Part shown: positions 19,497-62,165 of the stretch, piece after piece
How positions within the stretch are numbered: position 1 is the first letter of the stretch
Layout of the letters: each line of letters begins with the position of its first letter
NCBI GenBank assembly: GCA_040007635.1
Contig: JBDTUR010000001.1
Location: forward strand, 9,205-73,204
DNA from: Chloroflexota bacterium
Lineage (GTDB): Bacteria; Chloroflexota; Limnocylindria; Limnocylindrales; CSP1-4
Length of the DNA: 64,000 nucleotides
Direction: 5' to 3'
The notes under the pieces: model-generated
Seen by the model: only the letters and a program-made list of their open reading frames with translations
Database searches by the model: none
Told to the model about the DNA's origin: nothing
Position numbers and translations under genes: made by a program

Positions 19497-19527
19497 CATT
19501 TGAATTCCCAAAGGAAGGCCATTTGAA
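19497..19527. promoter_or_regulatory. Direct repeat CATTTGAA (19497-19504 and 19520-19527) in the lower-GC divergent promoter region between the A/B operon and the response-regulator gene. Candidate OmpR-family binding site.
   Basis: Two exact 8-mers 23 bp apart centre to centre. Confidence 0.3.
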
Positions 19528-19556
19528 CCTTGCGCAGCGCGGCTGGCGATGCCTAT

Positions 19557-37273: not shown

Positions 37274-39472
37274 TTAGCGCTCGAAACGGCCCATGTCGGG
37301 TGCGCTGCCGCGATAGCCGTCCGTCACGCCACTGACGATGCGGCCGCGATCGATGGCCGGCGAGTCGCTCGACAGCCGGTAGTCATGGTTCGCCGGATCG
37401 GTGAAGCTGGGATTCCCGGTGAGGCCGTGCACTTCCTTGCCGGTCCAGGAGCGGAACGTGTCGAGGCTCGTTGTGCCGCCGATGCCAACCACGGTGGCGA
37501 CATAGCCCGAGCCACTGTTGTAGACCAGGTTGTAGTCGATCACGACTGAGGCAGGCAGCGGCCAGGTCTCGATGCCATAGGCCTTGCCGCTCGTGACCCA
37601 GATGATGTTGTTGACGATCTGCAGGCCATCGATCGAGGCGCCCCAGCCGCCCTTGTTATGGGAGATGTCGAAGACGAAGACCTGCAGGTCGTGGAAGGTG
37701 TTGTTGGCCACGATGGTGTTCGAGGCACAGCGCAGGATCATGCCCTTCGAGACATCGACGGTCGTCGCACCATAGATGACGTTGCGCGTGAAGCGGCCGT
37801 TGTTGCACGGCGTCTTGTTGGCGTCCGTGCCTGATTCGAGCACGGTGCGGTTGTCCCAGATCGTGTTGTCGGTGATGGTCCAGTTGCTGGCACCAAAGAC
37901 GCTGAAGGCGCCGCCGTCGTAGCCGTAGTCGTAGCTGACCGCCCGGTTGCCCCAGATCGAGTTGCCGCGGACGGTCACGCTGCCGGTGGTCATGACCAGC
38001 GCGATGCCTTCGCCGCCGGCATCGTCGTCCGCGATGTCCGCGGTGTTGACGATCATCTTGTCGTTGTGGTGGACCAGGTTGTCGGTCACGAGCGTGCCCT
38101 GGCCGGCGCGACCGACGTAGATGCCGACCGCGTTGTGGGACACCTCGTTGCCATCGATGGTGACATAGGTCGAGCTGAACGAACGCACGCCCCAGACCTT
38201 GTTGGCGGTGATCAGGTTGTCGCTGATGTCGATGTATGAGCTGCTCTCGGCAGTGATGCCGGCGCTGTTGTAAGCCGGCCCTGAGCTGCCGCGGATGGTC
38301 AGGCCGGTGACGCGCACGTAGGCCGCGCCGACGATCTTGATCGTGTACTGCGCCACACCATAGCCGTCGACAACGGGCTTCTCGCTGCCGTACGCGGTGA
38401 AGGTGATCGGTGCCGCGGCGGTGCCTGAGCGGCGCATCACGAACGAGCCGTAGGTGCCCGCGCGCAGATAGACGGTCGCTCCGGCGGGCACCGTGTCAGC
38501 TGCCTTCTGGAGTGTCTTCCAGGGTGCCGCCAGGGTGCCCGGATTGGCGTCACTGCCAGTCGGCGCCACGTAATAGGGGTTGCTGCCTGGCGGCGCTGTT
38601 GGGTTCGGCGGAGACGTGGGCGATGGCGTCGGTGGCTGCGTGGGCGATGGCGTCGGCGCGGGTGGCTGGGTGGGCGCGGGAGAGCTGGTCGCGGCGGCCT
38701 GATACTGGTCAAAGGCGACCACGAATGGACCGCCCTTCGCCGCTGTTGATGCATATGTGATCAGGGCCACCGCGCCGGATCTCTGAAGTGCCGGCTTGCT
38801 ATCGGTGGAACTGTACGACCAAGTAGGCGGCTCGGGCGAGGATGACGGCCACGACCGTATTTGAATACCCGTCGGCGCCGAACCCGTGACGCGCACCCGC
38901 AGGTTCCATTGGGTGCCGATGGTTACTCGGTCGGTAATTGGCGAAGGGCTACCGATCTTCACGTCGCTTCCAGCAACGTATTTGCTCGCCCAGACCTCGG
39001 CGGCACCACCGGGCCGTATCCGTAGCCATGCGCGATATGCGTTACCTGTTGACGGAGCACGGCGTGCAACAGCAACGATCGAAACGGAGCCCTGAGTCGG
39101 CAGCTTGGAGAGCCGAAAACTCAATAGGAGCTCGACGTCACGTTGGTTGATCGAGCCCAGCGTGGCAGATCGACTCGCGCCCGATCTGGGCAGCGTCATC
39201 CGGCCCGCGCCGGCCGACACGCCGTAATCCTGCGCTGGCCCAGGTGTCATGTAGCTGCCGCCCACTTTTGCCGCGCCCCAACCGTTGATCGTTGTGCGAG
39301 CAAAATCGTCATAGGCGTAGGCAGACGATGACGCCGCGATCGGATCGGCGGTCACGACGGTCGTCAGCGAGAGCCCGCCCACTAGCGCGAGCCCAAGAAT
39401 AAGGATCAGCGAGGAGCGCTTCCGGGTATTGCCTCTAGGCGTCCGGGCCGCGGCTCCATCAGATACCGGCAC
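37274..39472 (-). CDS. Secreted protein: signal peptide, one copy of the unassigned about-210-aa domain, Pro/Thr linker, right-handed parallel beta-helix (pectin-lyase-fold) region
   Basis: N-terminal TM/signal; DDFARTTINGWGAAKVGGSY...AYRAWLRIRPGG...TGIQIRSWP...FVVAFDQY matches the repeated domain. The beta-helix repeat region is Asn/Gly/Ile-rich (e.g. NNIIWVTSG). Confidence 0.75.
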   Translation of the reverse strand: MPVSDGAAARTPRGNTRKRSSLILILGLALVGGLSLTTVVTADPIAASSSAYAYDDFARTTINGWGAAKVGGSYMTPGPAQDYGVSAGAGRMTLPRSGASRSATLGSINQRDVELLLSFRLSKLPTQGSVSIVAVARRAPSTGNAYRAWLRIRPGGAAEVWASKYVAGSDVKIGSPSPITDRVTIGTQWNLRVRVTGSAPTGIQIRSWPSSSPEPPTWSYSSTDSKPALQRSGAVALITYASTAAKGGPFVVAFDQYQAAATSSPAPTQPPAPTPSPTQPPTPSPTSPPNPTAPPGSNPYYVAPTGSDANPGTLAAPWKTLQKAADTVPAGATVYLRAGTYGSFVMRRSGTAAAPITFTAYGSEKPVVDGYGVAQYTIKIVGAAYVRVTGLTIRGSSGPAYNSAGITAESSSYIDISDNLITANKVWGVRSFSSTYVTIDGNEVSHNAVGIYVGRAGQGTLVTDNLVHHNDKMIVNTADIADDDAGGEGIALVMTTGSVTVRGNSIWGNRAVSYDYGYDGGAFSVFGASNWTITDNTIWDNRTVLESGTDANKTPCNNGRFTRNVIYGATTVDVSKGMILRCASNTIVANNTFHDLQVFVFDISHNKGGWGASIDGLQIVNNIIWVTSGKAYGIETWPLPASVVIDYNLVYNSGSGYVATVVGIGGTTSLDTFRSWTGKEVHGLTGNPSFTDPANHDYRLSSDSPAIDRGRIVSGVTDGYRGSAPDMGRFER

Positions 39473-39755
39473 AATCGTCCCTCTAGGTTCGCCGTCGCAC
39501 GGCGGCTATGGGCCGATCACTGTGATAGCTCGGCAGTACGCTTATAGCCTCTGCACCGCATCGGGACACGACTCCCAAATGGGCTACGGCGGATAGCCGA
39601 ATCTGCCACCGTTGATCACCCCTCACCGCCACGCTGGGGCGCGGCGACGCAGGCACCTTACCATAGCCAACCACCCCTATCCCGACTGCACGACACAGGG
39701 GTGGTGGCCCTTTCGCACCAGCCGCTCGACTGGCGCTTTGTCTGTCGTGGTCAGC

Positions 39756-41174
39756 TCAAGTGGGCCGGCGTCGGAAGGCGCCTGGGCCGAACGCGATTGA
39801 CTGAATGCCCAGCGTTCGGTAGGCGATGATCACGAGCACCACGTTCGCAAGCGTCAGGCTGGCCACGGCTCCAAGGGCGGCCCCGACCGTATCGAGCGTG
39901 GGAATCAAAACACCAGAAACTGTCAGGTTAATCAGCGCCCCGGCCGTGATCGCCAACGCAGCTCGACGTTGATGACCGGTCATTACCAGCAGGGTCGCCA
40001 CCGTCCCGGTTGCCGCATTCACCAACTGGCCGACAGTCAGGATTGCCAAGGCGGCGTTTGCACCGGCGAATTCTCCACCGAAGAATAGGTCCAATATCTG
40101 CCGACCGGCCGCGAGATAGGCGAATGCGAGCGGAAGCGCCGCGAGGAGGGCGCCGCGAGCACCAAGCGTGACGAGATGCTGCAGTTGCTGGCGCTCGCCC
40201 GCTGCCCAAAGACGGGCAGCCATCGGCCCGATCGCGGCGGAGACTGCGGCCAGTGGGAAAGCAACCAAGAGCGCTCCGCGCTGCGCGACGGCATATAGCC
40301 CTGCGGCCTCTGATCCGCTCATCGCACCCAGCAGGGCTACGCCGATTTGGCTGTTCAGAACACTGGAGCCGCTAAGGAAGCCGAGGGAGATGGCGGACAT
40401 AAGCCATGGGCGCGTTGCGTATGCCGGTCGGGCCTCCCGGACCTCTCGCGGTGTGCGCACCCACAGCAGAGCGACGCTGACCAGGCATGCGACGGCAATG
40501 CTCAGGCTGTAGAAGAACACGGCGCCTGCAGGGTCGATGGCGGCGCCCGCCGCTGCCACAACAACAACCAGTGCCAGCAGAACCGCTGGCCTGAGTATGT
40601 ACTCTGGAGCTTGTCCCAGGAGGATGTCGTGCAATCCCATCAAGCCGCCCTGGACAATCCTGCCCAGTGCCAGGAAAGGGAGGCCTACGACACCCAACCA
40701 GAACGCGATAAGGCCAGTTGACGGCGTGCCGCCAGCAACGATCCAGGCTGCGACAACCGTGCCGAGCGCCAGGACAACCGAGAGAATTAGCACCATTTGC
40801 TGGGCGCGCAGGAGGAGACCATGGGCCAGCCCGTATACGGCTGTACTGCTGTAGACGGCTATGTCTCGGATGACCAGCCTGTCGATGCCTAACACGGCCG
40901 GAATACCCAGCAGCGTTACGGTCGCGATCACGAACGAATAGACCCCGAATCCGGCGGCGCCCATCATCTGGGCCAGCAAGATCGTGGTCACGGTCGTAAT
41001 GGCGACGTTGGCGAGGTTGAGCGCGAGGCCACCAATTGCGTTGCGGGCAAGTAGCCGCGACGCGCCGCGCTCACTCCGGCGAGGGATCCCCTCGGCCTCT
41101 ATCGGCTCCAAGGTTTGACCGACTTCAAGGGGACTTCGCCTCCACTGGCCCCCGTGACACGGGGCAACACCCAC
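39756..41174 (-). CDS. Wzx-type oligosaccharide/polysaccharide flippase (MOP/MATE superfamily)
   Basis: About 12 predicted TM helices and a polysaccharide-biosynthesis-protein-like length. The exact start is uncertain. Confidence 0.7.
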   Translation of the reverse strand: MGVAPCHGGQWRRSPLEVGQTLEPIEAEGIPRRSERGASRLLARNAIGGLALNLANVAITTVTTILLAQMMGAAGFGVYSFVIATVTLLGIPAVLGIDRLVIRDIAVYSSTAVYGLAHGLLLRAQQMVLILSVVLALGTVVAAWIVAGGTPSTGLIAFWLGVVGLPFLALGRIVQGGLMGLHDILLGQAPEYILRPAVLLALVVVVAAAGAAIDPAGAVFFYSLSIAVACLVSVALLWVRTPREVREARPAYATRPWLMSAISLGFLSGSSVLNSQIGVALLGAMSGSEAAGLYAVAQRGALLVAFPLAAVSAAIGPMAARLWAAGERQQLQHLVTLGARGALLAALPLAFAYLAAGRQILDLFFGGEFAGANAALAILTVGQLVNAATGTVATLLVMTGHQRRAALAITAGALINLTVSGVLIPTLDTVGAALGAVASLTLANVVLVIIAYRTLGIQSIAFGPGAFRRRPT

Positions 41175-41289
41175 CGGCCCGCATTTCCTGGTCCTACTCT
41201 GGAAGGCGAGAGCTGGTGGCCGGATTATCGCCCAATAACTAGGCGAACGGACCGGACCCGGCCCAGGGGGTCAGCGCCCGACTAGAGTG

Positions 41290-41640
41290 GCGGCGCAATC
41301 TACAGGTCGTCGAAGCCGAGAATGACCGGCGCGTTGGATAGGCCGGCGTCGACGTAAAGGCGCAGGCCGGCTTCGCCGGCGGCCTGGAGGACCGAGGTCG
41401 TCCTGGTCGCCGTGAATTGCCAGCCTGCTGGTTCCGGCGGGCCGTCAGCCCAGGCCCGGACTCGAATCGTCTGTGGATTAGAGCCGACCACCTGGGCGCG
41501 CAGCCATAGCCAACCGTTCGCGGTGTAGCTGGGCCGGCACCGTGACCGCGGGGCCGAGCGACGACTCGACGTCGTTAACGACCACTCCGGCGCGCACCTG
41601 AACCGCAGCGCTGGGGTCGATGATCACGGCGACTTGACGA
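41290..41640 (-). pseudogene. Truncated, frameshifted remnant of the C-terminal half of the repeated about-210-aa domain, immediately after the stop of the 1790-aa gene
   Basis: Frame a reads ...VIIDPSAAVQVRAGVVVNDVESSLGPAVTVP. Frame c continues ...YTANGWLWLRAQVVGSNPQTIRVRAWADGPPEPAGWQFTAT...GLRLYVDAGLSNAPVILGFDDL*. There is no N-terminal half, no start and no signal peptide. Confidence 0.55.
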
Positions 41641-44600
41641 GGAAATCGTCGAAGTTGAACGTCACCGGTGCGTTGGACAGGCCGCCGCTGACGTAGAGGC
41701 GGAGGCCAACCCCGCCGGCGATTTGGACGGCGGCGTTCGAGTTGGTGGCGCTGTACTGCCAGGAGACTGGCTCGGCTGAGCCGTCGAGCCATGCCTTGAC
41801 GCGGATAGTGGTCGGATTGGTGCCGGAAATCTCGGCGCGCAGCCAAAGCCAGGCATTGGCGGTGTAGGTCAAGCCGGGCACGGTGGCCAGCGCTCCCATA
41901 GCCGACTCGGTGCTGTTCACCACCACCCCGGCCCCAACCTGGATGGTGCCGTTGGGCAAAATGACGAGCTTGGGCCGGTAGGCATTGTTGGCGTTGCGCC
42001 GTGCCTCGCCATAGATGAACAGGTTGCCCGCGCTGGGCAGTTTGTTTACGCGCACCCGGAAGCGGATGTCAACGCTGGTAACCGAGACGGCGTTCAGCAA
42101 TGCGGCGAGGTTTGCGCCGGAGGACGGCGCGACTATGGTGCCGACGCCCGAGCCAACGCCGAAATTGGAACTCGCGCCGTATAGGCCATAGGCGCCGCCG
42201 ATGTTGGCGCTTGCCCAGCCGCCAGTAACCGTGCGGTCGAAGCTGTCGCTGACGTAGGTGGTGAACGTGGGCGGGCTGACGCTGACGAGCTTGGTCTCGC
42301 TGTCCGTGCCGCCGGCGTTCGTCGCCGTAAGCGTCACACTGTAACTTCCAGCACTTGCGTAGGTATGGGCCGGGTTCTGCTGGCTGGAGCTGCCACCGTC
42401 GCCGAAGTCCCAGCTCCAGCCCGTGGGCGACCCAGTGGAGCTATCGCTGAAGTTGACGGTCAGCGTGCCGGGCTGCTGGACCTGGCTGAAATTGGCTACG
42501 GGGAGGGCGACGACCATGACCGTCTTCATTTGGCTGCCGGACCCACCGCCGTTAGTCGCAGTTAGCTTGACGGTGTAGTTGCCGCCACCGGCATAGATGT
42601 GGGACGGGTGCTGCACGCTCGAGCTGGCGCCGTCGCCAAAATCCCAGATCCAGGACGTGGGCGAGCCACTCGACACATCAGTGAACATCACCGCCAAAGT
42701 GTTCGCCTGCTGGGCGAACGAGAAATCGGCAACCGGCGGTATGGGTAGCACCGTCACACTCTTCGTTTCACTGTCCGAGCCGCCCAAGTTGCTGGCGGTG
42801 AGCGTGACGGTATAGTCTCCCGGCGCGACATAGGTATGCGTCGGGTTCCGCTCGGTCGAGCTACCGCCGTCGCCAAAGTCCCAGTTCCACGAGGCGGGCG
42901 ACCCGATGCTGGCGTCATGGAAGTTGGCCGTCAGCGTGCCTGCCTGCTGGGCAGAGGTAAAGTCAGCGAACGGCGGTGGCGGCGGGATGACAACACTCAC
43001 AGACTTGTTCACGCTGGTCGAGCCACCCGCGTTACTCGCATTGAGGGTGACGTTGTAGTTGCCGGACAGCAGGTACACATGGCTCGGGTTCTGCTGCGTC
43101 GAACTTGCGCCATCGCCAAAGTCCCAGTTCCACGACGTGGGCGAGCCGGTTGAAGCGTCGGTGAAGTTCACGGTCGTACCGCCGGACTGCTGGGCAAACG
43201 TGAAATCGGCAACCGGCGCGGGGAGCGAGACAGTAACCGTTTTGGTGACGGTGCCAGGGCCACCGGAGTTGGCCGCGGTGAGCGAAACGCTGTGACTACC
43301 GGACGCCGCGTACGTGTGCGACGGGTTCTGCAGAGTCGAGCTTGTGCCGTCGCCAAAGTTCCAGCCCCAAGAGGTGGGCACGCCGGTAGAGGTGTCGGTG
43401 AAGTTGACCGTCAGCGTGCCGGGCTGTTGCGCGAACGAGAAGTTGGCTACGGGAGTAGCCGGCGCCACGGTTACCGCCATGGTCGCGGTGCTTGAGCCGC
43501 CGGCATTGCTGGCCGTTAACGTAACCGTATAAGCACCCGTTGCGGCGTAGGTGTGCGACGGGTTCTGCAGAGTCGAGCTTGTGCCGTCACCAAAGTTCCA
43601 GTTCCAGCCAGCGGGCGAGTTAGTCGATGTGTCGGAGAAGTTCACCGTCAGCGTCGCAGGCACCTGGCTCGAAGCGAAACTCGCGGTGGGTCGCGTGATT
43701 GGTGCTCCGCCGGTTGAACGCACGAGGTAGTCGTCGAAATTGACGGTAAAAGGCACGTTGGTCGCGCTCGTGTAGAAACGAAGGCCCACTGTCCCGGCCG
43801 TCCGAACGGCCGCGTTGGAGTTGGTTACGGCGTACTGCCAGCTGGCGGGTTCAGCCGCGCCGTCCGCCCAGACCTTCATTCGAATGGTCGTAGGGCTGGC
43901 TCCGGAGACCTCGGCGCGCATGCGCAACCAGGTGTTCGGAGCGTAGGTCAGGCCGGGGATTGTCATTGCGTTCGCAACCGACGATTCGCTGCCATTGACC
44001 ATCACGCCCACGTGGGCCTGGACGGCGCCTGCCGGCGTGATCATGATCTTGGGCCGATACGCGTTGCCGCCGTTGCGCCTCGTCTCCGCGTAGATATAAA
44101 GATTGTCGCCCACAGGAAGCTTGCGTGCCCGGACGCGAACGTTCATGTCCAGGTCACGCGTCTGGACGTCGCCCAGAAGCGCAGAACCGGCGTTGCCCTT
44201 GATGGACAACAGCATCGCCGCCATCCCGCCACCGACGCTATAGGCGACGGGCGTGGGCTCAAGGTAGTAGGGACCGCCGACGTCGGCCATGCCCCAGTGG
44301 TCGCCGATCGTCCTCTCGAAGCTGTCTGCGGCAAGAACCGTGCCCGGCGCCAGTGGATTGACCGTGACAGTCTTGGTGATGCTCTGCGAGCCAGAGTCGC
44401 TGGTCACCGTGACGGTCGCGTCATAGGTGCCAGCCCCGTAAGTCCAGCTGGGATTCTGGAGCGAGGACGTGCCTCCGTCCCCGAAGGTCCACGACCAAGC
44501 ATAGGGAGAACCGCTCGAATTATCCGCGAAATCGATAGTCAAAGTGCCGACTTTCTGGCTCCAGTTGAAGTCGGCCGCTGGCAGCACTGGCGGCCCACCG

Positions 44601-46996
44601 GCGAAGGAGTTGGATGTAAGTGACGACGTCTCGCCGTTACTCCTGGTTTGGGTCGCCGCGATTCGGGTGCCTGGCGCGAGGGTTTCGGAGAAGGGCACCG
44701 TCCAGGCACCGCCGTTCACGACCGCGGAGCCAAGAAACGCGACTGGCAGGCCGGAGCTGCTGATGGATCGTGACGCCTTAAAGACTTCGACGGTGGACCC
44801 GTTGACGCCGCTGCCCGAGGCCTGCGTGGTCGAGGCCGAGATGATGATCGGCAACGGCGGCAAGCCGTTGGCACCGGTTGAGGGATTGTTCGGGTCTGGG
44901 GCGAGATAAATCGCCGGGCCGCTGGTATCAGTGATGACGTTACGGCTAATGGTGATATTGCGATCATTGAAGTCGATCAGGCCAATGCCGCCCAGTCCGG
45001 CATTTCGGAAGATGTTGCGTTCGACGGTATTGAACTTTGCGCTGAACTGCAGAAAGATACCCCAGCGGCTCATGGGTGCTGCCTCGCCGTACGGAGACTC
45101 GCCGACAGTATTGCCACGGATTACGTTTCCCGTGGAGTTGCTCATCATGATGGCCAGGCCGTTGTAAAAAGCACTAACGTAGTTACTTTCAATAATGTTG
45201 TCGCTAACACCGTCGACGAGATTGATGCCCTCGCCGTTGTCGTAGCTGGGGAGGTAGCGCGCCGAACGGAACTCTGGGTCATAGTGGCCGTCCTGGCGAA
45301 AGCCGACCCAATTGCCGATGACGTGGTTATCCCTGATCTCCCATGCAGGATCCGGTTGCCCGGTGTTGTAGTTCCAGCCATGGGACAATTCGATGCCGTT
45401 GGTGCCGGTGGAGCCGATGATGTTGCGCTCGTTTGCGCCGGAGCCACCTATCAGCGAGTGCTTTGGACCGAAGTCGGTGTCGATACCGATCTGGCACAGT
45501 GCGCCCACGGCAATGGTCGTGCCGTTGGGCCGAATACAGACGAGATTGTTCTGCCAGACGTTGTAGTCTGTACCAGGTCCATACTGATACAGCGCCTTTG
45601 CGTAGTTACCCACAACGTTCCGGTCGGCTAATGCCGGCGTGCCGATGTAATTGTGGTTCGCGCCGCCAGCCACCTGAACGCCAGAGCTTTTCTCCAGCCG
45701 AGGTGGTAGCGAGTTATCGGCACGAAATCCAACGAAGTTACCCACAATGTGATTGTTCGTGGATGTGGCACCCACCATCCAGATGCCGCGGAACGCGCTG
45801 TTGACAATCAGCCCCCTGATCGTGTTGTTTGGCCTAGGCACATACAACACGTACTCCATGCTGCTCTGGCCAGTGCCTCGGAGCTCAACGCCTGGTACAG
45901 CATTGGTCCCGAACGTCGAGGTGTTCACGTGGCTGCCTGGCTGGGAGTAGCCGTCGATCACCATGCTCGTCTGCGAGGTGCCGACCAAAGGTAGCTCGGA
46001 CCCCAGCTGGATAAGCACCGGCGCCTGGCCCGGCAGGTTGAAGGTGATCGTCTGCTGGCCCGGGTTCTGGTTGGCTTCCTCGATCGCCGCGCGCAGCGTG
46101 CATGCTCCCTGGGCATTGGCGCAGATCCCGTCTCCGAGAGTGACGTCGCCTGAATCGGCCGCGCTTGTGACGATGAAGGTGTGAGGGGCCTCGAGAGCCG
46201 CGTCGGTCGGTACGAACCCGTCGCCGATACTGGCTTTGAAGCCGGCGTCAATGCCACGTGCGACTGGGCGCGTGCTCGCCTCTCTGCCCTGGCTGGCGAG
46301 CAATGCCTGAATGTCGACGATGTCGATGCAACCGTCTGCGTTGGCGTCGGCGCCCAGGTTGGCACCGGCCAAGGCGCAGGAAGCACTGGCTCCGCGTGTC
46401 CGGTACCAGGCCGCCTGAGCGATGTCGAGGTCCTCAGGCGAGATGACACCCTTGCCGAAGAGATCCCGGACTGGGCTTGCGGTACGAGCCGGGGCCGGTC
46501 GTGCTCTGCCGTCCGGGGCAGCGCTCGATGCGCCCTCACCGCTGACATCGAGCGTGGCGACCATGTTGGTGTCCGCGAGCGCCACCCGCCGCCCGTTGGA
46601 GTCTGCCGCCGCGTCGACGAGGATGCGCATGCGCAGCGAACCGGAAACGCGCGGGAAGATCACCAGACGCAGGACGGTCTTACCACTCTTCGAGCGCAGG
46701 CCGTAAGCACCAAACGCATAGCCGTACGGCACCGGAACGGGCGTGAGTACCTCGCCTGGACCTACGGGTGCGACACCAACCAGGTCTCCGGTGTCCTCGT
46801 CGATCAGGACACGGCCGTCGACGGCAGCCACGTTTCCCGGCAGCGTGAGCGTGACCGCGGTTGACTGGCCAGGCGTCACGTTGGTCGGCACCGCGATCAG
46901 CACGGGCTTGCCAACTGCCGACGGCACCGACGCTGACAAGAGCGACGACGCCGCCAGAACTGCCGTCGCGACGGCCGTTATGAGTGTCCGCAGCAC
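41624..46996 (-). CDS. Giant secreted surface protein (1790 aa). Order: signal peptide, Ig-like N-domain, dockerin-like Ca-loop, right-handed beta-helix, PKD, novel domain copy, 6 tandem PKD, novel domain copy.
   Basis: [19 protein letters not shown] loop; beta-helix repeats (NHIVGNFVGF, NRNVVGNY ...); PKD signatures (W.WDFGDG...QNPSHTY) x7; novel-domain copies at about 43718-44335 and 41630-42265. Confidence 0.8.
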   Translation of the reverse strand: MLRTLITAVATAVLAASSLLSASVPSAVGKPVLIAVPTNVTPGQSTAVTLTLPGNVAAVDGRVLIDEDTGDLVGVAPVGPGEVLTPVPVPYGYAFGAYGLRSKSGKTVLRLVIFPRVSGSLRMRILVDAAADSNGRRVALADTNMVATLDVSGEGASSAAPDGRARPAPARTASPVRDLFGKGVISPEDLDIAQAAWYRTRGASASCALAGANLGADANADGCIDIVDIQALLASQGREASTRPVARGIDAGFKASIGDGFVPTDAALEAPHTFIVTSAADSGDVTLGDGICANAQGACTLRAAIEEANQNPGQQTITFNLPGQAPVLIQLGSELPLVGTSQTSMVIDGYSQPGSHVNTSTFGTNAVPGVELRGTGQSSMEYVLYVPRPNNTIRGLIVNSAFRGIWMVGATSTNNHIVGNFVGFRADNSLPPRLEKSSGVQVAGGANHNYIGTPALADRNVVGNYAKALYQYGPGTDYNVWQNNLVCIRPNGTTIAVGALCQIGIDTDFGPKHSLIGGSGANERNIIGSTGTNGIELSHGWNYNTGQPDPAWEIRDNHVIGNWVGFRQDGHYDPEFRSARYLPSYDNGEGINLVDGVSDNIIESNYVSAFYNGLAIMMSNSTGNVIRGNTVGESPYGEAAPMSRWGIFLQFSAKFNTVERNIFRNAGLGGIGLIDFNDRNITISRNVITDTSGPAIYLAPDPNNPSTGANGLPPLPIIISASTTQASGSGVNGSTVEVFKASRSISSSGLPVAFLGSAVVNGGAWTVPFSETLAPGTRIAATQTRSNGETSSLTSNSFAGGPPVLPAADFNWSQKVGTLTIDFADNSSGSPYAWSWTFGDGGTSSLQNPSWTYGAGTYDATVTVTSDSGSQSITKTVTVNPLAPGTVLAADSFERTIGDHWGMADVGGPYYLEPTPVAYSVGGGMAAMLLSIKGNAGSALLGDVQTRDLDMNVRVRARKLPVGDNLYIYAETRRNGGNAYRPKIMITPAGAVQAHVGVMVNGSESSVANAMTIPGLTYAPNTWLRMRAEVSGASPTTIRMKVWADGAAEPASWQYAVTNSNAAVRTAGTVGLRFYTSATNVPFTVNFDDYLVRSTGGAPITRPTASFASSQVPATLTVNFSDTSTNSPAGWNWNFGDGTSSTLQNPSHTYAATGAYTVTLTASNAGGSSTATMAVTVAPATPVANFSFAQQPGTLTVNFTDTSTGVPTSWGWNFGDGTSSTLQNPSHTYAASGSHSVSLTAANSGGPGTVTKTVTVSLPAPVADFTFAQQSGGTTVNFTDASTGSPTSWNWDFGDGASSTQQNPSHVYLLSGNYNVTLNASNAGGSTSVNKSVSVVIPPPPPFADFTSAQQAGTLTANFHDASIGSPASWNWDFGDGGSSTERNPTHTYVAPGDYTVTLTASNLGGSDSETKSVTVLPIPPVADFSFAQQANTLAVMFTDVSSGSPTSWIWDFGDGASSSVQHPSHIYAGGGNYTVKLTATNGGGSGSQMKTVMVVALPVANFSQVQQPGTLTVNFSDSSTGSPTGWSWDFGDGGSSSQQNPAHTYASAGSYSVTLTATNAGGTDSETKLVSVSPPTFTTYVSDSFDRTVTGGWASANIGGAYGLYGASSNFGVGSGVGTIVAPSSGANLAALLNAVSVTSVDIRFRVRVNKLPSAGNLFIYGEARRNANNAYRPKLVILPNGTIQVGAGVVVNSTESAMGALATVPGLTYTANAWLWLRAEISGTNPTTIRVKAWLDGSAEPVSWQYSATNSNAAVQIAGGVGLRLYVSGGLSNAPVTFNFDDFLVKSP
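42272..43687. repeat. Six tandem, highly similar PKD-domain coding repeats (about 240-bp period) inside the 1790-aa gene
   Basis: Protein repeats at residues 1104-1575. They also show up as repeated shadow ORFs on the plus strand (VELAPSPKSQ...). Confidence 0.75.
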
Positions 46997-47080
46997 TCCA
47001 GAAGCCCCTCTCTCTGCGCAGATGGACGAGTCTACGCCGCTCCCGCCAGAGAACCTACCTACTAACTATGACCCCGGTTT

Positions 47081-50000: not shown

Positions 50001-52180
50001 CTGATCCAGACCGTCGTTGCCGAGGCGATGACCGGACGGGCCAACAGCACATTGGCGCCAGTGGTTGGATCGTTGGCGTATGGCTGTAGGTGGATCGGTT
50101 TGGCCGATGAGTTGGTGATGATGTTGTGCGTAATTCGCACCCAACGCACGTTAGGTTCGATCAGGCCGATGCCATAGGAGGTCGTGTTGCGGATCGCGTT
50201 CCCCTCAATCACGTTACTTTTCGTCGCATTTCTCACGACTATGCCGTAGCGCCCTACCGGTGCCGCCTGGCCCAACGGCGACTGGCCAACAATGTTGCCC
50301 CGAACGACGTTGCCTGTCGAATTGCCTGACAGAATCTGGATGCCGTCCCAGACCGAGGACACATAGTTGCCTTCGATTAGGTTGTAGCTCGAACCGTCGT
50401 AGCAGTTGATTCCGTTGCCGTTGTCGCCCGAACCGGGACTACTCTGGGCCGAGCGGAAGGCGGCATCGTACGCGCCGTCGTGTCGGAAGCCGACCCAGTT
50501 GCCGAGCAGTTCGTTGTGGCTTACGGCCCAAGTATCGTCAGTCTGCCCCGGGGAGCCAGCCGGATTCCAGCCGTGTGACAGCTCGATACCATTGAGCGTG
50601 GTCCGTCCGATGATATTTCCTTCGTTCGGTCCCAAACCGCCCGTAATGTTGTATTGCGGTCCGGAGTTGTGGTCCACAGCCGTGCTGCACAGCGCATTGT
50701 TATCTGCAACCCCGTCGGGTCGCATGCAGAAGAGGTTGTTCTGGATGACGTTGTACTGCGTCCCAGCACCGTATAAATGGACGCCCTGACCGGCGCGGCC
50801 GATCACATTCCGGTCGGCCAGCGCGGGTGTGCCAATTATGTTGTGATTCGAACCTGTATTCAGCAAGATATCGTACGCGGCACTGTTAGTCGCTGTCGTA
50901 CCGTTCGGACTGAATCCAAACCAGTTGCCGATTATTTGGTTGTTCTGGGCATCGGTGCCATCGATGATGATCGGTCGGTAGAAAGTCCTGAAAGCAAGCC
51001 CGCGGATGACGTTGTTTGCGCTCGTGATGCGGAACGGATTGTTGACTGACTTGGTGGTCCCGGGACCTACCACGGCGATATTCAGGACCGCGTTCGAGCC
51101 GTAAGCCGCAGTGTTTACCGAACTGCCAGGCTGCGTGTAACCATCGATCTGGATGCCGCCGTTGCGATTCTGGACGATCGGCAGGGGTGAGGTGCCAACA
51201 GTGATGGTCTGCAGGCCACCCGGCGCGATCTGGAATTCGATTCGCGCCGGACCATGAACCCAGTTGGCCTCGGTGATTGCCGCACGCAAGGTACAACGAC
51301 CTTGGCTGTCGGCGCAGATTCCGTTACCCGGGCTGGTATCGGCCGTGTCCGCCGTGTTGTTCACGGTAAAAATCGGACCGGCGAAGGCAGCGGGGGCGTT
51401 TAGGCTCGAGGGGCGCTCAACGGCACCTGTGGTCGCGGCCGGGATGAGATGTTGCGCCGAGCTGACTCGGGCTCCTTGAGCGGCCACGAGAGCCTGGATG
51501 TCGACGATGTCGACGCATCCGTCGCCGTTCGCGTCAGCATACGCGGCGAGGTCAGCGCCACACGCCTCGTCACGCTCACGGGCCAGCTCCCAGCCCGCGC
51601 GCACGATGTCCAGATCCTTCGGGCTAATCCGGTTCTCGCCGAACAACCCACGCGTTTCTACCGCCGCGCGAAGTGGGACGGGTCGCGGGGTCGCTTGTGC
51701 TGCAGGGACGAACCTTGTATCGCCCGCGACATTCAGGTTGGCCACGGCGGCCAGCGACCTTGTCGTCAGGCGGCGGCCATTCGTGTCGGACGCCGAATCA
51801 ATGACCATGCGCACTTCCACCGCGCCGGCGACGTGCGGCGTCATCAGCACGCGCAGCACGGTCTGGCCCGCAGACGACTTCAGCCCATAAGCACCGAAGG
51901 CTGCGCCGCCAGGGATCTCGACCGGCGTGAGCGAAGTGCCGCCGTCTTTGGGCGCGACGGCGAGCAGCTCAGCCGCGCCGGAGTCGAATAGGATCCGGCC
52001 GTCCACCGCGGCGGCGTTCTTGGGCAACCGGAACTCCAGAGCGGTACTCGTATCCAACTCGACACGAGTTGGAGCCGCGACGGTGAGCGTCCTCGTCTGG
52101 GTGTTCTCAGCTGCCAGGCTCCCCATCGGAAACAGTGCGGTCAACGCGACCGTGACCGAGGCGATGACAAATCGGGACAT
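47081..52180 (-). CDS. Giant secreted surface protein (1699 aa). Order: signal peptide, Ig-like domain, dockerin-like loop, beta-helix, then three [PKD + novel domain] units.
   Basis: [18 protein letters not shown] loop; PKD x3; three copies of the GWG.AD.GG.Y ... [20 protein letters not shown] ... F.FDDF domain. Confidence 0.8.
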
Positions 52181-52384
52181 TTGGTAAACCCCTGATACCG
52201 TGGGTGATCCGCGCAGCAGCGCCGCAAGACGGCTGGAGGGACCCCCTCCTCGACTAGAGGCATCGTCTGCCCCGCCCGAACGAAAGTCAAGGCAGGCAGG
52301 GGTACTTTGGCACTACTGAAAGGTTTGGCGTTGGCTGGCGGCAACGGTTACCGCTCCGAACCCGGCCTAACCTCACACTAGGGC

Positions 52385-53443: not shown

Positions 53444-53464
53444 GGTCTTCTAAGCTCGGTTAAT

Positions 53465-54403
53465 TCAAGGCTGGTCTGTAGTTGCCGCAAGCAGCCCGCT
53501 GAAAGCGAACTCGTAGGGCGAACCGACGGTCCTGAGACCCGCGAGGGCGGAGAGGCCCACCGATCCGCTGCCCTGCAGGCTGCCGGTCCAGTCGATCACC
53601 GCGAAGTGCCAATAACTCGGCTCCTCCTGACCATCCTCCCACGTTCGCACGCGAACCAAGGTGGGATCGCTTCCAGTTGCCTGGGCTCTCAGCCAGATCA
53701 GCTTACCCGGGGTGACCCTCACGTCAGGGGCAAGCACCTCCCTGCCTAGCGACTGTGATCCGCCTGCCAACAGCAAGCCCACGTGGGCAAATACGGCGCC
53801 ACCGGCATCGATGCGGATCCTGGGCCGGTAAGCCAGTCCCGCGACGGTCGACCTCAGCAGTGCGTACACAAACAAAGATCCTTCGCCCTGTGGCAGCTCA
53901 TCGACTCTGACCCCGAACTTGATGTCGACGTCGCGCGCCGACACGGTGGGCAAGACGACGCTCCCCGTAGCGCCGGCGATCGGCAAGGTAACTAGCCCGT
54001 TGCCCGTTTCAACCCCGAAGCGTTCTACGCCGACGCTGGTCGAGTACTCTCCGCCAACCTCAGCCGCACCCCAACCATCATCAACGGCTCGCGAGAAAGT
54101 ATCGCTCGCGATGACGACAGACGGCCCCACAACGATGGGCGACCCCTGTGGGTGTGTGTCGGGCGTCCGCGCCGCCGGTGACACCGGTCCCGGGGCGGGC
54201 GTCCGCGGTGCGGCAAACGTCGCAGGATCCAGCCAAGCGGGCGCGAGAGCAGAGACAACGAGCAGGGTTACCAGCACGATCGACTTGTCTGACCAGGGCA
54301 GCGTTCTGACGCGCCGCATGGGAGCCGCACTATGACGGCGGGCGCGCATTAACAGGTCCGGCCCGTGGGATGGCGGCTGCTCCGAGTCTCCTGACGTACC
54401 CAA
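53465..54403 (-). CDS. Membrane-anchored protein carrying a single copy of the novel about-210-aa domain
   Basis: TM SIVLVTLLVVSALAPAWL, then DTFSRAVDDGWGAAEVGGEY...AYRPRIRIDAGG...TLVRVRTWEDGQEEPSYWHF. Confidence 0.6.
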   Translation of the reverse strand: MGTSGDSEQPPSHGPDLLMRARRHSAAPMRRVRTLPWSDKSIVLVTLLVVSALAPAWLDPATFAAPRTPAPGPVSPAARTPDTHPQGSPIVVGPSVVIASDTFSRAVDDGWGAAEVGGEYSTSVGVERFGVETGNGLVTLPIAGATGSVVLPTVSARDVDIKFGVRVDELPQGEGSLFVYALLRSTVAGLAYRPRIRIDAGGAVFAHVGLLLAGGSQSLGREVLAPDVRVTPGKLIWLRAQATGSDPTLVRVRTWEDGQEEPSYWHFAVIDWTGSLQGSGSVGLSALAGLRTVGSPYEFAFSGLLAATTDQP

Positions 54404-54529
54404 GGCCAGCTAGAGTCCTTTCCTGCCGTGGCGAATCGCCATGCTACGGGAGCGGACGTGGGCCGTCGATGGGACTATGCGCGGGTAGCAGCCGCCCTGT
54501 GTAACAAAGCAACGCGGACGCCCGCAAAA

Positions 54530-57500
54530 TCACGGCGTCGTCACGACGAAATCGTCGAAGCTGACCGTAATCGGCCAGTTGGCGATGCTGTCCACATAAG
54601 CACGCACGCCGACCGCGCCGGCAGTCTGGAGCACAGCAACCGAGTTGGTTGCGGTGAACTGCCACGCGCTCGGCTCGGTCTGACCGTCCGCCCAAACGCG
54701 GAGCCTAATCGTGGTCGGGCTGGCGCCGGTGATCTCAGCGCGTAGCCACAGCCAGGAATTGGCGCTGTAGGTCAGGCCGGGCACGACGACCGCTGGCGCG
54801 ATTGACGACTCTGACCCATTGACTACGGCGCCGGCATGGACCATTACGCTGCCGTTGGAGTTGATGATCAGCTTGGGCCGGTAGGCGCTGTTAGCGTTGC
54901 CCCGCACCTCGCCGTAGACGTACAGCTGGTGACCAGTGCTGGGCAGCTTGTTGGCGCGCACTCGGAAGAGCACCTTGACGTCCCTGGCGCTGGCGTTGTT
55001 GAGCCGCGTGGCTCGGGTTGTCCCGCCGCTGGGTAGCACGATGTTGCCCACCCCCGCGCCAACGCTGAAGTTGGTTGCCGTGCCGTCAAGTGTGTAGGCG
55101 CCGCCCAGAGTGGCTGAACCCCATCCGTTGGAGACGGTGCGCGTGAAGGAGTCGTTCGCAATGGCGGCGGACGACGGCTGCTGCACACCGACGGTCTTGG
55201 TGACGCTGTTCGAGCCACCGCCGTTGCCTGCCGTAAGGGTGACGCCGTATGTTCCCGGAGCAGCGTACGAATGCGACGGATTCCGAGTCGTTGAGGAGGC
55301 GCCGTCGCCGAAATCCCAGTTCCACGAGGTCGGCGAATTGGTCGAGGCGTCATCGAAGTTGACGCTCAGCGTGCCCTGCTGCTGGCTGAACGCAAAGTCG
55401 GCCACCGGCGGCGGTGGTGACCCACTACTGGCCGTTGCCCAGACCGGCGCCGAGGGTATCGATTCGTTCCCAGCACCGTCGAGGGCGGTTACAACATAGC
55501 GATATTCGGTCCCGTTCAGCGCCGTGGTGTCGACGAAGCTCGGCTGACCCAGCAGAGCACCGTTGAGTGGACCGGTCGTGGTGACTGCCCCGCGCGAGTC
55601 GTGGCACGCTTTGCTGCCCGTGTCGGTGAACGTCTTGCCCGCCTGGGGCATCCACTGCCAGTCATATGCAGCAGATCGCAGCGTCAACTTGAGCACGCCA
55701 TAGGAATCGTCGTTTCGAACCTCGCTGTTGGCAGTCGGCGTGCCCATTGAAGCGTGGCTCTCGCCACCCGTGCCCACGACGAATTGGCGGATACCTCGGA
55801 CGGTATCAAGCGCGCCGAGATAAGTCTGCGGCGCGAAGCGTTCGTAATTGTGTGTATGGCCTGTGAGCACCAGGTCCGCGCTGCCCTCGTAGAGCGCCTT
55901 GAACAGCGGCCGCACATACTCGCTCGGCGTGTGGGACGTCCCCGAAGTGAAGAGGGGCTCGTGCCAGATGGCCAAGGTGCAGGTATTGGTATGACTTGCA
56001 AGCTGGACTCTCAGCCACTGTTCCTGTGCCGATCCGGCATAGCAGCCGCCAACGTACGAGCACTCGCTGTTGAGTACCAAGACGAGCCACGAGCCCAACT
56101 GAAAGCTGTAGTAGCCCTTGTCACGGTCGCCGGCAATCGCGCCGAAGTAGTCGAAGTAACCGGCGGCCCCTGGGGTGTTGTACTCGTGATTGCCGATCGT
56201 CGGAAACGTGCGCGCCCAGTGGCGCCCCCAGGATGGCTGATAACACTGCCGGAACTCGTTGAGCGCGCCGTTGTCATAGACGTTGTCGCCGCTTGTCCAC
56301 ACCCAACCGGTGACATTGTCGAGCAGCTGCGCAGTGGCCTCATCGCCCGCTGTGCCGCAGCCCGCGATGTCTCCCGCGCCAGTGAAGGTCTGCGGGGAGA
56401 CGCTGGGCACCCCATCTCGATAGACTCGGTATCCGGCCGCGCCGGCAACCGGTTGCCATGACAGTTGGATCTGACCGTCCCCAGGAGTCGCCGTAAGCCC
56501 AAGCGGGCTCCCCGGCGGCGCCAACGGTGGGTCGACTGTCATCGTCCGCGTCACCTCGTCCGAGCCGGCGCCGTTCGACGCGACCAGCGTGACGAGGTAA
56601 GTCCCCGATGTGGCGTACGTATGCGTGGCGTTCTGAGAGCTCGAAGCCTGGCCATCGCCGAAGTCCCACGACCACGATGTGGGTCCGCCGGTGGAGGTGT
56701 CGGCAAACCGAAGCTCGCGCGACCAGGGCAGCTGCGCATGGTCGAAGTCCGCCGTCGGCGCAACTGGAGGACTTGATTGCGGTGGCGTTGCCAGGTAGTC
56801 GTCGAAGCCGAAAGTGACTGGCGCGTTGGTGGCACTGCTGCTGTTGTAGGCGCGAAGTCCGACGCTGCCCGACGACTGCAGCGCCGCGGACGAGTCGGCG
56901 GCGACGAACGTCCAGCCAACCGGTTCAGGTTGTCCATCGGGCCACACCCGACTGCGAATCGTGGTCGGATTGGTGCCCTCGAACTGTGCGCGGAACCAGT
57001 ACCACGTGTTGGCGCTGTGGGACAACCCTGGGATTTGCGTCCAGTTGCCAAATCCGGTGCCTGCACCGTTCAGCACGCGCTGCGCACGCAAGCTGATACT
57101 GCGGTCCGACGCAAAGAGGATCTGAGCGCTGTATTCGGAATTGCTGGCCAGGTGTCGCCGAGCAACCACGTATCCGATCTGCCCGGCTCCCGTAGCGATC
57201 TTGGACGTTCGGACACGTACGACCACATCCACGTCCAGGGCTGACACGGCTTCCAACGTTGCCGCCCTCGCGGCTCCGGCTGTCGGCAGAGCGACCAGGC
57301 CTGTCGACCCATCGGCCGAAAAGCTCGACGATCCGGCGTGGGTGTAGCTGCCGCCGACGTCGGCGGTACCCCAACCGCCGCTCGCGACCCGCGAGTAACT
57401 GTCAGCAGCGAATGTGACACCGGTGGACGCCTGGCCGCCAGTGGCCGGCGGCCCGGTTACCAAGGCCTGCGCGGCGGTCGCCGGCAAGCCAAGACCCAGA

Positions 57501-57616
57501 ACGACTGCGATCGCTATGGCCTGAAAGACCCGGGTCGTCCGGATTGCCTGGCTCCTCAACCCCGTCTCCCTATCAACCTGGCGTGGGGATGCCGATGGTA
57601 TCTCCTCCGATGGCAA
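54530..57616 (-). CDS. Secreted multidomain protein (about 1000 aa). Order: novel domain, PKD, Fn3, purple-acid-phosphatase-like metallophosphoesterase, Fn3-like, PKD, novel domain.
   Basis: Metallophos motifs GDNVYDNG, GNHEY, GHTHNYERF; Fn3 (LSWQPVAGAAGYRVYRDG); PKD x2; two novel-domain copies. The true start is probably downstream of 57616 (signal VFQAIAIAVVLGLGLPATAAQA). Confidence 0.75.
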   Translation of the reverse strand: MPSEEIPSASPRQVDRETGLRSQAIRTTRVFQAIAIAVVLGLGLPATAAQALVTGPPATGGQASTGVTFAADSYSRVASGGWGTADVGGSYTHAGSSSFSADGSTGLVALPTAGAARAATLEAVSALDVDVVVRVRTSKIATGAGQIGYVVARRHLASNSEYSAQILFASDRSISLRAQRVLNGAGTGFGNWTQIPGLSHSANTWYWFRAQFEGTNPTTIRSRVWPDGQPEPVGWTFVAADSSAALQSSGSVGLRAYNSSSATNAPVTFGFDDYLATPPQSSPPVAPTADFDHAQLPWSRELRFADTSTGGPTSWSWDFGDGQASSSQNATHTYATSGTYLVTLVASNGAGSDEVTRTMTVDPPLAPPGSPLGLTATPGDGQIQLSWQPVAGAAGYRVYRDGVPSVSPQTFTGAGDIAGCGTAGDEATAQLLDNVTGWVWTSGDNVYDNGALNEFRQCYQPSWGRHWARTFPTIGNHEYNTPGAAGYFDYFGAIAGDRDKGYYSFQLGSWLVLVLNSECSYVGGCYAGSAQEQWLRVQLASHTNTCTLAIWHEPLFTSGTSHTPSEYVRPLFKALYEGSADLVLTGHTHNYERFAPQTYLGALDTVRGIRQFVVGTGGESHASMGTPTANSEVRNDDSYGVLKLTLRSAAYDWQWMPQAGKTFTDTGSKACHDSRGAVTTTGPLNGALLGQPSFVDTTALNGTEYRYVVTALDGAGNESIPSAPVWATASSGSPPPPVADFAFSQQQGTLSVNFDDASTNSPTSWNWDFGDGASSTTRNPSHSYAAPGTYGVTLTAGNGGGSNSVTKTVGVQQPSSAAIANDSFTRTVSNGWGSATLGGAYTLDGTATNFSVGAGVGNIVLPSGGTTRATRLNNASARDVKVLFRVRANKLPSTGHQLYVYGEVRGNANSAYRPKLIINSNGSVMVHAGAVVNGSESSIAPAVVVPGLTYSANSWLWLRAEITGASPTTIRLRVWADGQTEPSAWQFTATNSVAVLQTAGAVGVRAYVDSIANWPITVSFDDFVVTTP

Positions 57617-60610: not shown

Positions 60611-60691
60611 GGGTCAGTACACTTCGAGAGTGAGCAAGACCGAACGGATCACGGTTGGCACTGGCGAGAAAAGGGCGTCGGTAACGGCCGG

Positions 60692-62028: not shown

Positions 62029-62165
62029 TGCTGTCCTCCCAATGGTCCAACTCCGGCCAATGATTCTCCGTCCGCTGGCGTCATTGTGGCGCTCGTCGCG
62101 ATGCGCCGCGGCGAGCCGAGGGCAGGCGTGTCAGGGCGCTGACGGCGGACTGGCCGAATGAACAC

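Follow-up and report, generated by a model that had tools for sequence, protein, structure and literature searches.

A repeated module with a predicted concanavalin A-like fold and a probable glycan-binding role, shared by large secreted proteins of Chloroflexota and tail proteins of actinophages

A module of about 210 residues, repeated in five neighbouring genes of a Chloroflexota bacterium, constitutes a new family with a concanavalin A-like fold as predicted by modelling, and it is probably a non-catalytic glycan-binding (CBM- or lectin-like) targeting module. All coordinates given here are positions within the window, i.e. the whole 64-kb stretch of DNA that was analyzed. When an HMM built from six copies was run against the six-frame translation of the entire window, exactly nine full-length copies were obtained, all on the minus strand, as had been announced for five surface-protein genes in an earlier note on this DNA. 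The rest of the window contains no further copy. The nine matches extend from HMM positions 1-2 to 205-209, with domain E-values from 4.7e-47 to 2.8e-107. The pairwise identity of the copies is only 32-61%, which indicates old, selected duplicates and not recent repeats.

The five genes, all on the minus strand, encode proteins of different architecture. The 732-aa protein (37274..39472) comprises a signal or anchor sequence, an N-terminal module (38690..39322, aa 51-261, E 4.7e-47), a Pro/Thr linker and a right-handed, pectate-lyase-like beta-helix with matches to Beta_helix, NosD, Pel9A-like, DUF1565 and PelN-like. In the 1790-aa protein (41624..46996), a signal peptide, an unassigned N-terminal region, a CSLREA motif, a beta-helix, a Big_6 domain and a PKD domain precede an internal module (43715..44338, aa 887-1094, E 7.9e-104), which has PKD on both sides, since six PKD domains follow it before the C-terminal module (41630..42259, aa 1580-1789, E 1.2e-105). 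The 1699-aa protein (47081..52180) also starts with a signal peptide and a CSLREA motif (CSLREA_Nterm, 30.3 bits versus a cut-off of 25). The region that follows is homologous to the beta-helix part (N-terminal 800 residues) of the 1790-aa protein, without a Beta_helix match in the Pfam scan. Three PKD-module pairs complete this protein, the first module being located at 48875..49504 (aa 893-1102, E 2.2e-105), the middle one at 47984..48613 (aa 1190-1399, E 2.8e-107) and the C-terminal one at 47087..47713 (aa 1490-1698, E 5.6e-106). The 1028-aa protein (54530..57616) carries one module at the N-terminus (56783..57415, aa 68-278, E 2.5e-64) and one at the C-terminus (54536..55165, aa 818-1027, E 9.8e-104), and between them a phosphoesterase of the Metallophos type (calcineurin-like or purple-acid-phosphatase-like) flanked by PKD domains. 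The alternation with PKD domains in cassette-like units, proposed earlier for the two giant proteins, is thus observed in both and is found in the 1028-aa protein as well. Finally, the 312-aa protein (53465..54403) consists of an N-terminal hydrophobic anchor and the module as sole domain (53480..54115, aa 97-308, E 8.3e-54), and it has no Pfam or NCBIfam match. Its copy is divergent and has lost the terminal FDD motif in the alignment. The start of this gene is uncertain, as it is called at 284 aa in an identical public contig.

The family is characterized by the motifs D-x-F-x-R near the N-terminus, G-W-G-x-A-D-x-G-G, R...Y-R, P-T-T-x-R-x-K-x-W-x-x-G-x-x-E-P-x-x-W and a terminal F-D-D. The more detailed motif series listed previously for the window copies holds for the six closer copies; three copies show it in degenerate form, namely the single ones of the 732-aa and 312-aa proteins and the one at the N-terminus of the 1028-aa protein. 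A decayed tenth copy, also suspected before, is real. It lies on the minus strand at 41303..41672, immediately 3' to where the 1790-aa gene stops, and its upstream end covers, in another frame, the final codons of this gene. Only a C-terminal half is left (HMM positions 98-205), split by one frameshift: bases 41303-41545 correspond to HMM positions 131-205 (E 1.8e-32), and bases 41505-41672 correspond, in a second frame, to positions 98-129 (E 1.4e-6). The N-terminal ~95 residues are missing. Its best match at the DNA level is the adjacent C-terminal copy of the 1790-aa gene (68% over 296 nt).

Membership of known families was checked by HMMER-level searches and one hhalign test, using 59 diverse members of the family together with the nine window copies. 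The window copies match nothing in Pfam-A (2025 copy), even at E <= 10, and the 59 diverse members match nothing consistently, the best cases being Endotoxin_C for 3 of the 59 (E 0.02) and CBM_4_9 (PF02018) for a single one (E 0.032). No HMM match to GH16, DUF1080 (3-keto-disaccharide hydrolase) or PA14 was found, and the search of NCBIfam yielded noise only. Kinship to any solved structure at the sequence level was ruled out by two profile searches of the PDB sequences, whose best E-values of 0.41 (9-sequence profile) and 0.37 (59-sequence profile) both correspond to short spurious stretches. A further candidate was a diverged Laminin_G_3 domain (PF13385), which belongs to the same fold class and co-occurs in many homologous proteins, albeit as a separate domain elsewhere in the sequence. 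It was rejected: Pfam gives no such match for the window copies (E <= 10) or for the 59 diverse copies (E <= 1), jackhmmer started from true Laminin_G_3 never recruits the module, and hhalign against genuine Laminin_G_3 domains from the same homologous proteins gives a probability of 0.5%. The earlier statement that the module could be assigned to no known family therefore stands in the light of these searches. The sole matching database cluster is PHROG 24476, named 'phosphodiesterase', which is matched by 49 of the 59 copies (best E 3.6e-20), and by a window copy with E 2e-19 over residues 4-209 (profile positions 830-1033 of 1066). However, this cluster was assembled automatically from complete phage tail proteins and does not define a domain family. 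It represents PhoD-family tail proteins, for instance the one of the Streptomyces phage-plasmid pFP3, and the module is its C-terminal part, whereas the name fits the N-terminal PhoD enzyme. CBM23, founded on a mannan-binding module of ~230 aa in C. fimi Man26A, was considered as a candidate because of its similar size and because some homologues of the present module carry GH26.

An exhaustive profile search returned 6,943 clusters at 50% identity. Among the top matches, two to five copies per protein are usual; 156 of 205 proteins have their last copy at the C-terminus, and 76 of 205 have N-terminal copies. The cellular homologues combine the module with Beta_helix, Phosphoesterase, Metallophos, GH26 and GSDH domains. 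A second homologue search, with a diverse profile, gave mostly proteins shorter than 400 aa, none of which is Pfam-annotated across the module, and the cluster names of ten large homologues are only 'hypothetical', 'PKD repeat protein' or 'CSLREA domain-containing protein'. Where the organism is named, it mostly belongs to Chloroflexota or Actinomycetota or is a phage of these; one partial match is labelled Hyphomonadaceae, i.e. a diderm.

In Streptomyces and Thermobifida phages, tail proteins of ~1,100 aa have a C-terminal domain that is a sequence homologue of the module. In Dubu gp16 (E 1.1e-50) it occupies aa 1033-1239 of 1273, and other examples are KimJongPhill gp27 and gp28, Rooney gp24 and pFP3. 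A structural match in BFVD reaches a TM-score of 0.87 at 25% identity. In IMG/VR the module is present in at least 105 contigs. In 80 IMG/VR loci it is single-copy, and 73 of 84 ORFs have it no more than 40 residues from their C-terminus. In the named phages, the genes with the module follow the tape measure gene immediately or with one gene in between. A constant pairing with a PhoD-type phosphodiesterase in phages was ruled out, such an enzyme being found in 4 of the 84 viral ORFs. One functional analogue, from a mycobacteriophage, has been characterised by experiment: the gp23 CBM of Douge binds mycobacterial arabinomannan/LAM and alpha-glucan (PMC13033339). The Douge gp23 BppU-CBM (8zdo) and the TM4 gp23 receptor-binding domain (9n6a) share 11% identity with the module and were missed by the PDB sequence-profile searches. 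Both lie outside the family, as analogues or as very distant relatives.

The architecture of these proteins, with two to five copies, a C-terminal last copy, diverse catalytic partners and a Pro/Thr linker, is typical of a binding module. Together with the module-linker-enzyme order and the actinophage tail homologues, it makes a lectin-like or carbohydrate-binding role, as guessed in the earlier note, the best-supported function, although the glycan nature of the ligand and the choice among glycans are both inferred. The CAZy definition of a CBM asks for a contiguous, discretely folded and non-catalytic part of a carbohydrate-active protein with proven carbohydrate binding; the module has the discrete fold and the attachment to GH26 and beta-helix enzymes, and its carbohydrate binding is a prediction. 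In bacteria, the module would keep secreted enzymes and adhesin-like proteins attached to a polysaccharide of the envelope or the extracellular matrix. Among these proteins are beta-helix lyase-like proteins, phosphoesterases and GH26 enzymes, with PKD domains as spacers, and several copies of the module in one protein could provide avidity. In actinophages, the single C-terminal copy of the long tail protein would bind a cell-wall glycan of the host. Nothing specific points to S-layer proteins, which had been considered as well, and the searches turned up neither SLH nor any other S-layer signature.

The genes around the module-bearing genes are those of glycan biosynthesis, in line with the first description of this neighbourhood. 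A Wzx-type flippase (Polysacc_synt/MatE, 39756..41174, minus strand) lies between module-bearing genes and is syntenic in related MAGs. At 57830..63272 there are nucleotide-heptose-type pathway genes (GHMP kinase, SIS isomerase, nucleotidyltransferase and Hydrolase_like phosphatase) and two GT4 glycosyltransferases, the nucleotidyltransferase and the phosphatase being read from the 100%-identical contig L009. A profile search of genome contigs with a narrow alignment returned five Chloroflexia MAG loci, and the synteny of module genes with flippase, GT4 and heptose-pathway genes is kept in Chloroflexia MAGs. A homologue in Clavibacter michiganensis sits in a cluster with GT4, CDP-alcohol phosphatidyltransferase and Wzz-type genes. 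At one locus (L001), four module-protein paralogues are found in tandem.

Such a neighbourhood raises the possibility, tentative at this stage, that the module retains proteins in cis by binding a secondary cell-wall or surface glycan that the producer itself makes with the adjacent flippase/GT4/heptose cluster. This would be a special case of glycan binding and not its opposite. The proteins would be held non-covalently on a monoderm envelope, like those with SLH, CWB2, LysM or GW modules, and phages would have borrowed the module for recognition of this polymer. The extreme C-terminal position in most of the 205 proteins, the reduction of the 312-aa protein to a membrane anchor and a module, and the glycan-biosynthesis synteny in two phyla are consistent with it, as is a reading of the sequences of the five window proteins, whose module-ending C-termini have no LPXTG-type motif. 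So are the predominance of Chloroflexota, Actinomycetota and their phages among the named organisms, and the sharing of the module with phage tail proteins, as is the case for known wall-binding modules. However, N-terminal copies are frequent too, as in ordinary CBMs, one partial match comes from a diderm, and the co-location with glycan genes concerns a handful of loci. By a related and equally tentative extension, the module could be a widespread wall-glycopolymer-recognition domain of monoderm Terrabacteria, captured by actinophages as the receptor-binding head of their tails. It would then be the functional equivalent, in Chloroflexota and Actinomycetota, of SLH, CWB2 and LysM, keeping secreted enzymes and adhesins on the polymer that the adjacent genes produce, and this surface polymer might be anionic and contain heptose or phosphate.

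The copy at 47984-48613 was modelled with AF2 at a pLDDT of 98.1. The model is a compact beta-jelly-roll of 15 strands in two curved antiparallel sheets, which superpose on lectins, GH16 and LamG, in accordance with the jelly-roll guessed before. This is the concanavalin A-like lectin/glucanase fold, which we take to be Pfam clan CL0004. The module shares this fold, but its sequence could not be linked to any member family and its motif set is its own. Its nearest structural neighbours are overwhelmingly carbohydrate-active. CBM66, the C-terminal module of B. subtilis levanase SacC (4b1m), is ~45 residues shorter, shows 10-12% identity and has no sequence-profile match. The longest structural alignments (191-192 residues) are with enzymes of PL36, PL14 and GH16, so the fold alone cannot tell a binder from an enzyme. 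A new family of ConA-like polysaccharide lyases or glycoside hydrolases, comparable to PL7, PL14, PL36 or GH16, appears improbable. Its 210 residues are the size of a GH16 or PL7 catalytic domain, compared to 120-170 aa for typical CBMs, and the near-invariant R87, Y94, E163, D173 and Q179 are of residue types used by such lyases. However, of the residue types that make up the catalytic set in the concave cleft of PL7, PL14 and PL36 (Tyr + His/Lys + Arg/Gln), the conservation analysis shows no conserved His or Lys, with R87, Y94 and Q179 near-invariant, and R87 and Y94 fall in phase with the hydrophobic residues of the hairpin they belong to. It would also be unusual to find a catalytic domain as two to five divergent tandem copies interspersed with PKD spacers, and other catalytic domains accompany the module; the PL36 and PL14 alginate lyases (6kcv, 5gmt; 9-13% identity), in contrast, are single-copy enzymes. 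The identity to any enzyme is 5-14%, and there is no Pfam match to a GH or PL family.

Many near-invariant positions (Gly, Pro, Trp and R87/Y94) look structural, and not like ligand contacts, from their alternation pattern. Taken with the very large, repetitive proteins encoded by tandem paralogues and with the protein contacts that the Douge BppU CBMs also make in the baseplate (PMC13033339), this could suggest a module without a glycan ligand, such as an oligomerisation or lattice unit of a surface layer or phage baseplate, but we consider it still less probable than an enzyme, given the carbohydrate-active structural neighbours, the many unrelated partners, and the module-PT linker-enzyme order and phage C-terminal position typical of ligand-binding heads.

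For the preferred glycan-binding module, there is a weak hint that the ligand is an anionic polymer, e.g. one of uronic acids or a teichoic-acid-like one. This hint comes from conserved basic residues that alternate opposite the hydrophobic core (R95/R97/R99, R141, and R153/K155 beside W157) and from the recurrence of the module with phosphodiesterases, including those of the PhoD type. In B. subtilis, PhoD is an endolytic teichoicase (PMC7086022). A globally basic module was ruled out (median pI 7.9). The partner enzymes are very diverse, and a single common substrate is thus unlikely.

New ConA-like binding modules turn up regularly, and the present one, a new family with a known fold, leaves current concepts unchanged. 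Its interest lies in its extent: public annotation labels the proteins of its ~7,000 clusters (50% identity) as nothing more than 'hypothetical' or 'PKD domain-containing'. With an entry in Pfam or CAZy, thousands of large proteins secreted by soil Chloroflexota and Actinomycetota would receive an annotation, and so would the distal domain of numerous tail proteins from Streptomyces phages. The module may also be a new scaffold for glycan probes. To our knowledge, the receptors of Streptomyces phages are largely unknown. If binding to a wall or matrix glycan is true, the module would provide a pointer to these receptors and a handle on the surface attachment of proteins in the poorly studied Chloroflexota.

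Using an HMM built from six copies chosen by eye, every six-frame ORF segment of the 64-kb window was searched for the module of about 210 aa. Nine full-length matches were found, with domain E-values from 4.7e-47 to 2.8e-107. All lie inside 37274-57616, a region of seven ORFs on the minus strand, and this search found no module elsewhere in the window. The 1699-aa protein carries three copies, the 1790-aa and 1028-aa proteins two each, and the 732-aa and 312-aa proteins one each. Directly 3' of the stop codon of the 1790-aa gene is a remnant whose matches are split over two frames (HMM positions 131-205 in one, 98-129 in another), indicating a frameshifted C-terminal half-copy of the module. 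Its best DNA match is the adjacent intact copy (68% over 296 nt). The count in the earlier note, nine copies in five proteins and a decayed tenth, is thus confirmed. Pairwise identity among the copies is 32-61%, so they are old duplicates retained by selection.

An N-terminal hydrophobic segment, signal-peptide-like or anchor-like as read by eye from the sequence, is present in all five proteins, and Pfam-A matches in these proteins are PKD, Beta_helix, Big_6 and Metallophos. The giant proteins do alternate PKD domains and module as cassettes, as the same note had described: (PKD-module)x3 in the 1699-aa protein and PKD-module-6xPKD-module in the 1790-aa protein. In the 1028-aa protein, the arrangement module-PKD-...-PKD-module flanks a calcineurin-like/purple-acid-phosphatase-like core. 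The 312-aa protein has its module behind a hydrophobic anchor. In the 732-aa protein the module is followed by a long Pro/Thr linker and then by a right-handed beta-helix with weak similarity to PelN, Pel9A, NosD and DUF1565. In the N-terminal stretches of about 270 aa of the two giant proteins (46200-46996 for the 1790-aa protein and 51400-52180 for the 1699-aa protein, minus strand), the part that follows the signal peptide matched no library searched. It contains a dockerin/EF-hand-like motif, after which comes a CSLREA motif (C-T-L-R-A-A-I). With the NCBIfam model CSLREA_Nterm, the 1699-aa protein reaches 30.3 bits and the 1790-aa protein 20.3 bits, the latter under the cut-off.

The module could not be assigned to a known family, in agreement with the earlier note. 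Pfam-A gave nothing over the module region of the window proteins, a Pfam scan of the nine isolated copies at E <= 10 gave only two isolated noise matches, NCBIfam gave noise only, and the best PDB sequence against the nine-copy profile had an E-value of 0.41. We gathered 333 full-length copies from homologues and reduced them to 59 sequences with a mutual identity below 40%. Pfam matched these 59 in no consistent way (best scores: Endotoxin_C in 3/59, E 0.02; CBM_4_9 in 1/59, E 0.032), PDB sequences did not match their profile, and precomputed Pfam annotation was empty for every module-only homologue. Laminin_G_3 is present in many homologues, as a domain of its own located elsewhere in the protein. 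That the module is itself a diverged Laminin_G_3 was rejected, since the profile of the 333 copies, compared with that of 46 co-occurring LamG_3 domains, gave a probability of 0.5%. PHROGs was the sole matching library: 49 of the 59 copies match cluster 24476, 'phosphodiesterase', at about positions 830-1033 of 1066. Cluster 24476 groups phage tail proteins over their whole length and does not constitute a domain definition.

The AlphaFold2 model, based on a 53-sequence alignment (pLDDT 98.1, pTM 0.93), is all-beta with 15 strands. Its structural neighbours (similarity scores in brackets) are PL36 alginate lyase (17.3, 192 residues aligned), Mycobacteriophage Douge gp23 (17.2), CBM66 (17.2), the TM4 gp23 receptor-binding domain (17.1), the galactocerebrosidase lectin domain (16.8), PL14 alginate lyase (16.2) and the GH43 C-terminal domain (6ms3; 16.1). 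Foldseek was concordant with these (best E 1.7e-6, TM 0.64). The earlier guess of a jelly-roll is thus borne out, with no one known family ahead of the rest. A Foldseek search of BFVD gave one outlier, a minor tail protein of Streptomyces phage KimJongPhill (E 7.6e-13, TM 0.87, 25% identity).

Sequence homologues of the module do occur in phage tail proteins, which is a new finding. A tblastn search located the module in 15 Streptomyces phages, in Thermobifida phage P1312 and in one gut phage, 17 records in all. The family HMM matches Dubu gp16 (aa 1033-1239, E 1.1e-50), the pFP3 protein (6.8e-49), KimJongPhill gp27 (4.5e-46) and gp28 (5e-30), and Rooney gp24 (2.8e-43), and every signature motif is kept in these five proteins. 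The phage genes are located directly behind the tape measure gene or one gene beyond, the spot of Tal/tail-fibre proteins. A pattern scan of IMG/VR added 105 relatives. In the 80 loci retained there is one copy per protein, at most 40 residues from the ORF end in 73/84 viral ORFs (median ORF 1,133 aa). A PhoD-type phosphatase is joined to the module in P1312_022 and the pFP3 protein, a parallel to the phosphoesterase and module of the 1028-aa protein; this combination occurs in only 4/84 of the IMG/VR ORFs. Since it carries genes for a tape measure protein and for a PhoD-family tail protein ending in the module, the 34-kb linear plasmid pFP3 of Streptomyces sp. F2 (NC_023067.1) appears to be a prophage or phage-plasmid. 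The module protein of pFP3, at 1066 aa, has the same length as the PHROG 24476 profile.

The family is very large. An exhaustive hmmsearch over 1.84 billion cluster representatives gave 6,943 proteins at E <= 1e-3, 4,597 at E <= 1e-10 and 1,575 at E <= 1e-30. Among the best 150 and earlier matches, a list biased to multi-copy proteins, most have 2-3 copies (maximum 5), and the last copy forms the C-terminal end in 156/205. Named sources are Chloroflexota MAGs, Clavibacter, Cellulomonas, Actinomadura, Pengzhenrongella and Actinomyces oris, besides one partial protein from a Hyphomonadaceae MAG. The window is matched at 100% identity by a public Chloroflexota MAG contig, and the nearest relatives (55-62%) are uncultured Chloroflexia MAGs. 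In one of these (CAVVHT010000009.1, about 7400-20623), four giant CSLREA/beta-helix/PKD/module paralogues are consecutive, with at least eight module copies at the locus, a strong expansion of the giant gene family in this lineage. Partner domains in 47 homologues are PKD (24), K319L-like PKD (16), Sde0182_C (8), Ig-like (Bact_surface_Ig-like, 6), Laminin_G_3 and Beta_helix (5 each), Phosphoesterase (4), GH26 and Metallophos (3 each) and GSDH (1).

In the window, a Wzx-type flippase is interspersed among the module genes, which adjoin genes for a GHMP kinase, SIS isomerase, nucleotidyltransferase and small phosphatase and for two GT4 enzymes. The kinase, isomerase, nucleotidyltransferase and phosphatase genes lie side by side at 57830-62028 and, as assigned by Pfam, are presumably the set for the GDP-D-glycero-alpha-D-manno-heptose route, which serves S-layer glycans in some Gram-positive bacteria. 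Synteny with this region extends to related Chloroflexia MAGs and takes in the giant paralogues, a conserved 352-aa protein, the flippase and a homologue of the 732-aa protein; one such locus (L005) additionally holds heptose genes and a GT4. The 352-aa protein (52385-53443, minus strand), encoded between module genes, had no match in Pfam, NCBIfam or PDB sequences and is kept in synteny at 72-83% identity in three of these MAGs. Its start is uncertain, as the identical public contig calls the gene at 310 aa. Just upstream of the region, two adjacent plus-strand genes (34026-34943 and 34968-35804) begin with zinc-ribbon or double-zinc-ribbon motifs. The former also encodes a PKD domain, so its product may belong to the membrane or surface proteins of this neighbourhood. 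In Clavibacter michiganensis, a PKD+module protein has GT4, CDP-alcohol phosphatidyltransferase and Wzz-like genes as neighbours.

On the most economical reading, the module would be a non-catalytic glycan-binding module. The fold class points to this, as do the architectures (module-linker-enzyme, and several copies with PKD spacers), the promiscuous pairing with catalytic domains and the location at the C-terminus of phage tail proteins. Moreover, the structurally closest phage module, the BppU-CBM of Douge, has been shown experimentally to bind glycan (PMC13033339). A cis-acting wall-retention module would be a special case of glycan binding, attractive and yet rather unlikely.

Residue conservation was assessed by per-column statistics of the 333 copies, numbered as in the middle copy of the 1699-aa protein (47984-48613, aa 1190-1399). 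Many near-invariant residues are Gly, Pro or Trp; others are D5/F7/R9...D204, which pair the terminal strands, and R87 and Y94 are in register with hydrophobic positions of their hairpin. These near-invariant residues are thus probably structural. The moderately conserved basic residues R95, R97, R99, R141, R153 and K155, near the invariant W157, alternate with hydrophobic positions on strands 92-100, 138-145 and 150-158, and could be a candidate anion-binding stripe. Together with the phosphodiesterase partners and the role of PhoD as a teichoicase in B. subtilis (PMC7086022), they hint at an anionic polymer as ligand, weakly because the overall pI of the module is neutral. A new lyase or hydrolase is improbable: the multi-copy arrays, the lack of a conserved His or Lys in the module and the co-occurrence with other enzymes all speak against it. 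That the module is a purely structural or protein-binding unit seems slightly less probable still.

Set against Pfam-A, NCBIfam, PDB sequences and PHROGs, the module is a new sequence family, very large in size, whose fold is well known and whose function is probably of a well-known kind. It brings no new principle, and the family deserves a database entry.
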